Source of the DNA: Escherichia coli
GTDB taxonomy: Bacteria; Pseudomonadota; Gammaproteobacteria; Enterobacterales; Enterobacteriaceae
NCBI RefSeq assembly: GCF_002854065.1
Contig: NZ_CP024147.1
Reading direction: 5' to 3' (one strand)
DNA length: 64,000 nt
In this document: positions 2,182-2,471 of the stretch, one piece after another
How the letters are laid out: every line of letters begins with the position of its first letter
Numbering within the stretch: position 1 is the first letter of the stretch
Translations under genes and position numbers: made by a program
Notes under the pieces: model-generated
What the model was told of the DNA's origin: nothing
What the model saw: the letters and a program-made list of their open reading frames with translations, nothing else
Database searches by the model: none

Positions 2182-2316
2182 GATTGAAACCTGCCCGTTT
2201 AAAGTTATTTTTTCACTTCAACCCACTTTGCTTAACGCTGGCTAAGCAAAGTGTGCGGAGAAGCACCATTCCCTTGCTGAAATGACCAGATTGTTGACAA
2301 AGTGCGCGTTATTCAT

Positions 2317-2416
2317 GCCGGATGCGGCGTTAACGCCTTGTCCGACCTACAAAATCGTGCAAATTCAATACATTGTAGGAACCATGTAGGCCTGATAAGC
2401 GAAGCACATCAGGCAG
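2317..2416. repeat. REP/BIME-type palindromic units (two copies)
   Basis: tgccggatgcggcgttaacgccttgtccgacctaca and tgtaggcctgataagcgaagcacatcaggca, the canonical enterobacterial REP palindrome family, in the ratA-sinI spacer. Confidence 0.75.
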
Positions 2417-2471
2417 TTTTGCCTTTGTCATCAATCTGACCATTCCCTTGCGGGAATGGTGCTGGTAAAGA

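Follow-up and report, generated by a model that had tools for sequence, protein, structure and literature searches.

How did a pair of inverted REP units come to lie between two copies of a hairpin in the spacer that separates sinI from the adhesin gene ratA? This question is raised by the first few kilobases of a 64,000-nucleotide stretch of Escherichia coli DNA (the window), in which the sinI-ratA spacer occupies positions 2182-2471 (290 bp). A preliminary description had noted a short motif on either side of the two REP units and had proposed that it might be a duplicated terminator or a footprint of REP/BIME insertion. The gene labels used there hold, as RefSeq names SinI family and RatA-like flanking genes, and strains 100416 and CUWW06 show 100% identity over region 2100-2560. 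The features of the locus, which are discussed in turn below, are collected in Table 1.

Table 1. Features of the sinI-ratA junction and its surroundings, in window coordinates.
Feature	Position	Strand	Description	Basis
ratA-like adhesin gene, 5' part	1..2181	-	start codon 2179-2181; continues beyond window	ORF; RefSeq 'adhesion domain-containing protein' in identical genomes
Second palindrome, CACTTTGCTTA-N8-TAAGCAAAGTG (also given as TTTGCTTA-N8-TAAGCAAA)	2224..2253	.	just upstream of ratA	perfect 11-nt inverted repeat
Outer-stem remnant (GCT) and T-tract	2257..2264	-	transcribed strand GCTTCTCC, versus GCTTTTCC in empty alleles	filled/empty alignment
ratA-proximal hairpin copy, ACCATTCCC-TTGC-TGAAATGAC	2265..2286	.	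BIME-side arm degenerate, 4 changes	
Left outer arm of BIME-1 (CAGATTGTTGACAAAGTGCGCGTTATTCAT)	2287..2316	.	first ~15 nt form terminal inverted repeat with right arm	common to dppA-dppB, satP-mog, barA-gudD and other copies
Y-type REP (inverted REP)	2317..2350	.	ends CTAC	alignment with 9 other copies; weak naRNA4 Rfam match
L linker of BIME-1	2351..2385	.	35 nt	conserved across loci
Z1-type short REP	2386..2414	.	29 nt; starts GTAG	sequence and alignment
Right outer arm of BIME-1 (AGTTTTGCCTTTGTCATCAATCTG)	2415..2438	.		
sinI-proximal hairpin copy, ACCATTCCC-TTGC-GGGAATGGT	2439..2460	.	intact, stem as in empty alleles; separated from T-tract	
Outer stem bases (GCT on + strand) and 8 nt up to sinI stop codon	2461..2471	-		
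sinI (321 aa)	2472..3437	-	stop codon 2472-2474	ORF; RefSeq 'SinI family autotransporter-associated protein'
sinH	3493-5673	-	upstream of sinI	

In E. coli, sinH-sinI-ratA exists as two deeply divergent alleles, with SinI 47% identical and ratA DNA about 72% identical between them. The window-type allele is rare, being carried by 47 complete E. coli genomes and by one more with a partly deleted ratA (47-48 of 5,426), and the BIME is present in all of these carriers, which include the O145:H28 STEC lineage. The ST131-type allele, found in roughly 740 E. coli genomes, has a 109-bp spacer without REP units and with one hairpin (ACAGCATTCCC-ATAC-GGGAATGCTGT; three examples read). As the nearest relatives of the window-type allele are found in E. 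whittamii, Escherichia sp. E1V33 and Citrobacter, sequence comparison suggests that this allele was transferred between species. In the carrier strain 2018-05-2CC, a deletion starting inside the second palindrome and aligned to the window from about 2243 downward takes out the promoter region of ratA together with the gene's 5' portion, leaving ratA annotated as a pseudogene and bringing xseA close.

The two REP units placed between the motif copies by the preliminary description were recovered there in inverted orientation (GCCGGATGCGGCGTTAACGCCTTGTCCGACCTAC, 2317-2350; GTAGGCCTGATAAGCGAAGCACATCAGGC, 2386-2414). By the definition of Ton-Hoang et al. (PMC3333891), BIME-1 consists of inverted Y and Z1 REPs joined by a long L linker, often with an IHF site, and on the basis of its sequence we assign the 152 bp at 2287-2438 as a single BIME-1 (RIP) element fitting that definition. 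Over 151 nt, outer arms included, it is 89.5-90.8% identical to the BIME in the K-12 dppA-dppB intergenic region, and it could be aligned column by column with the copies at dppA-dppB, satP-mog, yfeS-cysM, barA-gudD, ybiU-ybiT, gloC-aspC, and katE-chbG. The 35-nt L linker is nearly identical across 8 loci and contains a predicted IHF-type site, with 12 of 13 positions of ATTCAATACATTG (2363-2375) agreeing with the IHF consensus WATCAANNNNTTR. Terminal inverted repeats of ~15 nt (CAGATTG...CAATCTG) bound the element, and its outer arms (CAGATTGTTGACAAA and TTTGTCATCAATCTG) are conserved at most loci. The 290-bp spacer holds one such extragenic unit and no tandem array, and similar places number a median of 6 per E. 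coli genome. We also considered counting GGGAATGG/TCATTTCA as part of the element, which would give a 4-bp GCAA duplication and longer terminal repeats, and rejected this because these 8-9 nt match the ancestral stem of the locus and are absent from other copies.

A scan against Rfam returned only BIME-derived families, namely ES036/CssrF on the linker (2351-2393, + strand; 48 bits, gathering score 37.6) and a weak naRNA4 match, and nothing else apart from a weak Ysr224 match (E = 0.22). The ES036 family (CssrF sRNA) appears to have been modelled on BIME-1 linkers, and ES036 matches elsewhere thus probably mark copies of BIME-1 rather than a dedicated sRNA gene. Elsewhere in the window, a second BIME-1 lies between pepB and sseB (25609-25710, minus strand); it has neither outer arms nor a flanking repeat and, being present in 5,424 of 5,426 E. 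coli genomes, is fixed in the species. The window contains additional REP units near 32832-32910, 44114-44147, and 61823.

The motif pair flanking the element proved to be real, although its positions required correction by 2-5 nt: the spacer contains exactly two copies of the 13-mer ACCATTCCCTTGC, which lie at 2265-2277 and 2439-2451 (start-to-start distance 174), where the preliminary description had given about 2263-2277 and about 2442-2456. In register, the repeat extends to 20 nt at 90% identity (2265-2284 and 2439-2458) and to 22 nt at 18 of 22 positions (2265-2286 and 2439-2460), and at this length the two copies directly abut the two ends of the 152-bp element. Also borne out was the observation that the second copy belongs to a hairpin just after the sinI stop, which is formed by ACCATTCCC (2439-2447), a TTGC loop, and GGGAATGGT (2452-2460) and lies 11 nt from the stop codon. 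From the sequence of the two copies, the 13-mer is best understood as the best-preserved part of a 22-nt target duplication in direct orientation, made up of a 9-bp stem, the loop, and the second 9-bp stem. Written in the order of transcription, the filled site reads AGC-(ACCATTCCC-GCAA-GGGAATGGT)-element-(GTCATTTCA-GCAA-GGGAATGGT)-GCT-TCTCCGC. The form of the ratA-proximal copy is common to all 47 E. coli carriers and E1V33; in O145:H28 and related strains this copy has been degraded further by an extra 4-bp GAAT duplication (GGGAATGAATGG, aligned at about 2278-2284). Short two-copy repeats are often chance matches, and the spacer is GC-rich, yet an exact direct repeat of at least 13 nt was rare when the 290-bp spacer was simulated 5,000 times under a first-order Markov model (P = 0.0012), and the repeat coincides exactly with the boundaries of the element and with the single ancestral hairpin described below, which leaves a negligible probability for a fortuitous match.

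Comparison of spacers with and without REP units, the check that had been proposed for this locus, was made on the 13 additional sinI-ratA loci obtained from a scan of species-representative genomes together with the E. coli alleles; Salmonella sinI-ratA was not recovered with the peptide patterns used in that scan. This gave 14 REP-less spacers from Escherichia, Citrobacter, Pseudocitrobacter, Leminorella, and the ST131-type allele of E. coli, and two REP-bearing spacers, those of the window and of Escherichia sp. E1V33, which is 99% identical and has the BIME as well as the repeat. The two REP-bearing spacers each measure 290 bp and contain an exact 12-13-nt repeat at a spacing of 174, whereas all 14 REP-less spacers are 71-155 bp long and have one hairpin and no direct repeat of at least 10 nt as scored by script, so that the repeat is present in both REP-bearing spacers and in 0 of the 14 others. 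Among the strains compared, the two motif copies never occur together where the REPs are missing. E. coli E69 and E. whittamii, which are closest to the window allele with SinI identities of 92% and 91%, are REP-less; after their stop codon the sequence runs ACC(A/G)GCACCATTCCC-loop-GGGAATGGTGC(T)-TTTTCCGC and then into the second palindrome. The window spacer is 174 bp longer than theirs, equal to the 152-bp element plus the 22-bp repeat. A single hairpin followed by a T-run is likewise found in Citrobacter (four genomes), Pseudocitrobacter (three), Leminorella, and Escherichia sp. MOD1-EC7003. The spacer of the last of these has about 50 nt of extra non-REP sequence (GTCGGCTAAGGCGAGGCCGCAATCTGACATTAACCCGGTAAACC) between the sinI hairpin and the second palindrome.

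These comparisons point to a mobile 152-bp BIME-1 that landed in the conserved stem-loop after sinI and left a copy of the hairpin on each side, a reading to which we give a probability of roughly 0.78 on the sequence evidence. The duplicated terminator and the insertion footprint, offered as alternatives in the preliminary description, would then be two sides of one event. Because every outgroup is empty (11 or more taxa), the insertion is, by this sequence comparison, the derived state. The reverse polarity, in which the filled state is ancestral and single-hairpin alleles arose by precise excision, has in its favour that deletion between direct repeats of 13-22 nt is plausible. However, every sinI-ratA outgroup is empty with a perfect stem (four Citrobacter, three Pseudocitrobacter, Leminorella, and both divergent Escherichia alleles), and the repeats would still have had to arise when the element arrived, so we regard this polarity as very unlikely at sinI. 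Tandem duplication of the terminator hairpin before the arrival of the BIME, which then entered between the copies without making a duplication of its own, is compatible with this single locus taken alone, and the unequal decay of the two copies could mean that one is older. Against it stand the absence of two copies from all 14 REP-less spacers and the exact abutment of the copies to the ends of the element, and, as set out below, the same layout recurs elsewhere; we consider such a prior duplication very unlikely.

The second palindrome (2224-2253) lies outside the insertion and forms the undisturbed downstream flank of the target site. It is found in the same place, with conserved sequence, in 12 of 13 other taxa, Leminorella being the exception, and its outer positions covary (CACTTTG/CAAAGTG, TCTTTTG/CAAAAGA). 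Judging from this pattern it might serve as the operator of a dimeric regulator, or else form an RNA hairpin within the leader of ratA.

Presence or absence of BIME-1 between strains is a known phenomenon, and filled and empty alleles could be paired at four loci in total: sinI-ratA, satP-mog, gloC-aspC, and dppA-dppB. At satP-mog, 467 genomes have a filled allele that is 170 bp longer and reads CTCCCCCCGCTCGAAGGGAT-element-ATCCCCCCGCTTGGGGGGAT-TTTTTTT, while the empty allele of K-12 has a single ATCCCCCCGCTCGGGGGGAT-TTTTTTT; ATCCCCCCGCTCGGGGGGAT is present on both sides of the filled site, so a hairpin of 20-21 nt has been duplicated. The gloC-aspC spacer is filled in 2,811 genomes including K-12 (171 bp longer; GCCCGCTTTTAATGCGGGC-element-GCCCGCTTTTCAGCGGGC), with (A)GCCCGCTTTTCAGCGGGC on both sides and thus a duplicated hairpin of 18-19 nt, and is empty with one copy in O157 and ST131. 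Precise excision may well explain some of the empty alleles at satP-mog or gloC-aspC, where either state may be ancestral. The fourth pair, dppA-dppB, is filled in 3,249 genomes (157 bp longer than the empty allele); its site lacks a strong hairpin, and the repeat there is limited to 4 bp (ATAC). Across the four pairs the element is consistently 148-153 bp long and the duplication measures 4, 18-19, 20-21, or 22 bp, the long duplications corresponding to the whole target hairpin. A 20-nt flanking repeat is also present at katE-chbG, where the alternative allele is an unrelated spacer and hence provides no empty allele for comparison. In E. coli the katE-chbG spacer occurs in two unrelated forms, one with the BIME and duplicated hairpins and the other of 46 bp with the hairpin AAGGTCACGTCCCC-TGGG-GAGTGACCTT. 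With the same arrangement at satP-mog and gloC-aspC, where the empty allele has one hairpin, and at katE-chbG, independent prior duplications of the hairpin at each locus are improbable.

Local alignment of one flank against the other scored above all 2,000 shuffles at sinI, satP, gloC, and katE-chbG, and the same comparison found no significant flanking repeat at dpp, yfeS-cysM, ybiU-ybiT, or barA-gudD; barA-gudD has a decayed look-alike of the repeat. Several of these loci were considered and rejected as further filled/empty pairs: pepB-sseB and barA-gudD are fixed in E. coli, the alleles at yfeS-cysM and ybiU-ybiT differ by larger rearrangements, and the alternative katE-chbG allele failed as an empty partner for the reason given above.

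The region around the element also forms a 41-nt inverted repeat (2262-2302 and 2423-2463) that is 78% complementary and centred on the BIME, and the whole region folds as one rod. Both features would be expected if one flank had been copied, by fold-back or template-switch replication, to the other side of the palindromic BIME in inverted form. The loops, which are the only asymmetric part of the hairpins, argue otherwise: at sinI the loop matches at 4 of 4 positions as a direct repeat and at 0 of 4 as an inverted one, and the loops are likewise in direct orientation at satP-mog and gloC-aspC (loop pairs TTGC/TTGC, GCTC/GCTT, and TTTTAAT/TTTTCA). In the flank alignments the direct score is at least equal to the inverted score at sinI (16 versus 12), satP, gloC, and katE-chbG. 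From sequence comparison, the inner half of the 41-nt repeat is the terminal repeat of the element itself, present also at loci without a flanking hairpin, and the outer half is the duplicated palindromic hairpin; the preliminary description had missed that the inner half belongs to the BIME. Growth of a palindrome by such copying is thus highly improbable.

If insertion of the BIME is accepted, a mechanism is needed that yields duplications of variable length. We propose that the element would insert as a discrete unit of ~151-153 bp through a structure-dependent event, in which breaks (nicks) or replication template switches would occur at the two feet of the target palindrome and repair would then copy the whole hairpin. 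If both strands of the palindrome were broken at equivalent points with respect to the hairpin, the stagger would equal the hairpin length, and at sinI the break positions would be AGC^ACC and GGT^GCT. Breaks at the feet of the palindrome would explain why the length of the duplication follows the size of the hairpin (18-19, 20-21, and 22 nt) and why it amounts to just 4 nt at the site without one. The obvious candidate for a catalyst is the REP-associated Y1 transposase, which recognises hairpins and cuts single strands nearby; the termini of the element end CAGTC^T and so contain CT. As IS200/IS605-type Y1 transposition, which is the accepted model of how REPs move, leaves no target repeats, both the catalyst and the mechanism are put forward as candidates only. 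The broader proposition, that arm-bearing BIME-1 units (~151-153 bp, bounded by terminal inverted repeats) integrate by DNA structure into terminator-type palindromes and duplicate the whole hairpin, the target setting the length, is a tentative one that we regard as possible though rather doubtful. Weighing against the insertion reading are the small sample, four filled/empty pairs of which one, dpp, has a repeat of just 4 bp, and the lack of a significant flanking repeat at three further loci (yfeS-cysM, ybiU-ybiT, and barA-gudD).

The distribution of changes between the copies bears on what was duplicated. In the three pairs with long repeats, the copy on the Z1 side is the same as the empty allele, and the copy on the Y side carries changes, mainly in the element-proximal arm (window 2278-2286); four of the seven substitutions in these Y-side copies are G to A. 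Since all four changes between the sinI copies fall within the 9 element-adjacent nt of the 22 (about 0.017 by chance if spread at random), the sequence could also be read as a true duplication of 13 nt, the other 9 nt having come from filler or donor flank. Alternatively, the ratA-proximal stem may have been weakened by selection. Survivorship bias could contribute too, in that insertions keeping a terminator on each side may be those that persist; satP-mog and gloC-aspC are convergent gene pairs.

What the hairpin does is suggested by its conservation. It is a GC-rich stem-loop just downstream of the sinI stop whose structure is maintained across 13 taxa, with compensatory double changes at 9 of its 12 base pairs, loops that are stable tetraloops (GCAA, GUAU, UUCG), and a T-run and CCGC following the stem; the E69 hairpin folds at -22.2 kcal/mol. 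On these sequence features it resembles an intrinsic terminator or a 3'-end stabiliser, and it is in this sense that we infer the terminator named in the preliminary description. A terminator scan that needs 5 T in 8 nt did not call the hairpin in either the window or E69, the tract having only 4 T: the empty alleles have TTTT and then CCGC 3' of the stem, and the window has TCTCC.

In the filled allele, the sinI-proximal hairpin on the transcript is intact and is followed by the element in place of the U-tract, while the distal copy keeps its 3' arm, has a degenerate 5' arm, and is followed by UCUCC (a TTTT to TCTC change). Folding of the minus-strand RNA over 2255-2471 gave -90.5 kcal/mol (z = -7.8); in the minimum-energy fold the 5' arm of the first hairpin pairs with the 3' arm of the last, and these two distal arms close an uninterrupted rod of ~200 nt in the 3' region of sinHI. 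In published work, REP/BIME elements have been linked to Rho-dependent attenuation and to protection from 3' exonucleases. By analogy we predict altered termination or read-through into ratA and altered stability of the sinHI mRNA 3' end; as the insertion separates the stem-loop from the U-tract, the ratio of ratA to sinHI expression may not be the same as in BIME-less alleles.

In one rare adhesin-island allele, a mobile REP pair would have remodelled the junction of sinI with ratA, a giant adhesin gene. Taken by itself, the locus holds a new but ordinary copy of a known element, and the point of interest, a modestly interesting lead, is the recurrent target duplication of variable, hairpin-matching length, because the mechanism of REP/BIME insertion is an open question (PMC3333891, PMC8266576, and a 2026 preprint). 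Clean filled/empty pairs with direct repeats as long as the hairpin place a concrete and surveyable constraint on that mechanism, and the hairpin copy kept at each flank suggests why such insertions are tolerated. If insertion is indeed guided by structure, these pairs would provide a first sequence-level handle on REP insertion in vivo, would explain how REPs colonise 3' ends without abolishing termination, and would reveal a duplication that is not predicted by the IS200/IS605 peel-and-paste model assumed for REP/RAYT. We found no description of flanking hairpin duplication at BIMEs in the literature covered, from which earlier BIME papers (Bachellier 1997, Gilson 1991) and De Gregorio 2006 were absent, and accordingly make no claim of priority.

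Compared with known systems, the element is closest in its build to the BIME-1/RIP elements of E. coli, such as the dppA-dppB copy, with which it shares the inverted Y and short Z1 REP, a linker L of ~35 nt, and occurrence as a single extragenic unit per locus; it differs in occupying a previously uncatalogued site in the rare sinH-sinI-ratA allele (47-48 of 5,426). Like REPINs mobilised by RAYT/TnpA(REP), it is a REP doublet that forms one long hairpin, is multi-copy and strain-variable, and has termini (...CAGTCT) that include CT, the dinucleotide required for cleavage by TnpA(REP) (PMC3333891). Members of the IS200/IS605 family insert without flanking direct repeats (PMC3333891, PMC2817692), whereas three of the four insertions described here carry direct repeats of 18-22 nt, which sets them apart from RAYT or IS200/IS605-type transposition. 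A review states that REPs "do not display MITE signatures" (PMC3184786); the present element has terminal inverted repeats, as a classical MITE does, but its target duplications (22, 20-21, 18-19, and 4 bp) are not of fixed length. REP dimers have been found regularly inside short or long palindromes in other phyla (Di Nocera et al. 2013, PMC3733652), where the palindromes form a family-wide consensus, whereas the hairpins here are specific to each locus, and the empty allele has just one. Among documented precedents, YPAL/RU-2 of Yersinia, a family of ~168-bp palindromic intergenic repeats (De Gregorio et al. 2006, as described in PMC2229807), comes closest. It belongs to another genus, the only hint of relatedness in sequence being the weak Ysr224 match noted above. 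As summarised in the same source (PMC2229807), YPAL insertions produce target duplications that vary from 3 to 26 bp at targets spanning or adjoining dyad symmetry, and by description this behaviour resembles the duplications of 4, 18-19, 20-21, and 22 bp reported here, three of which are whole hairpins.
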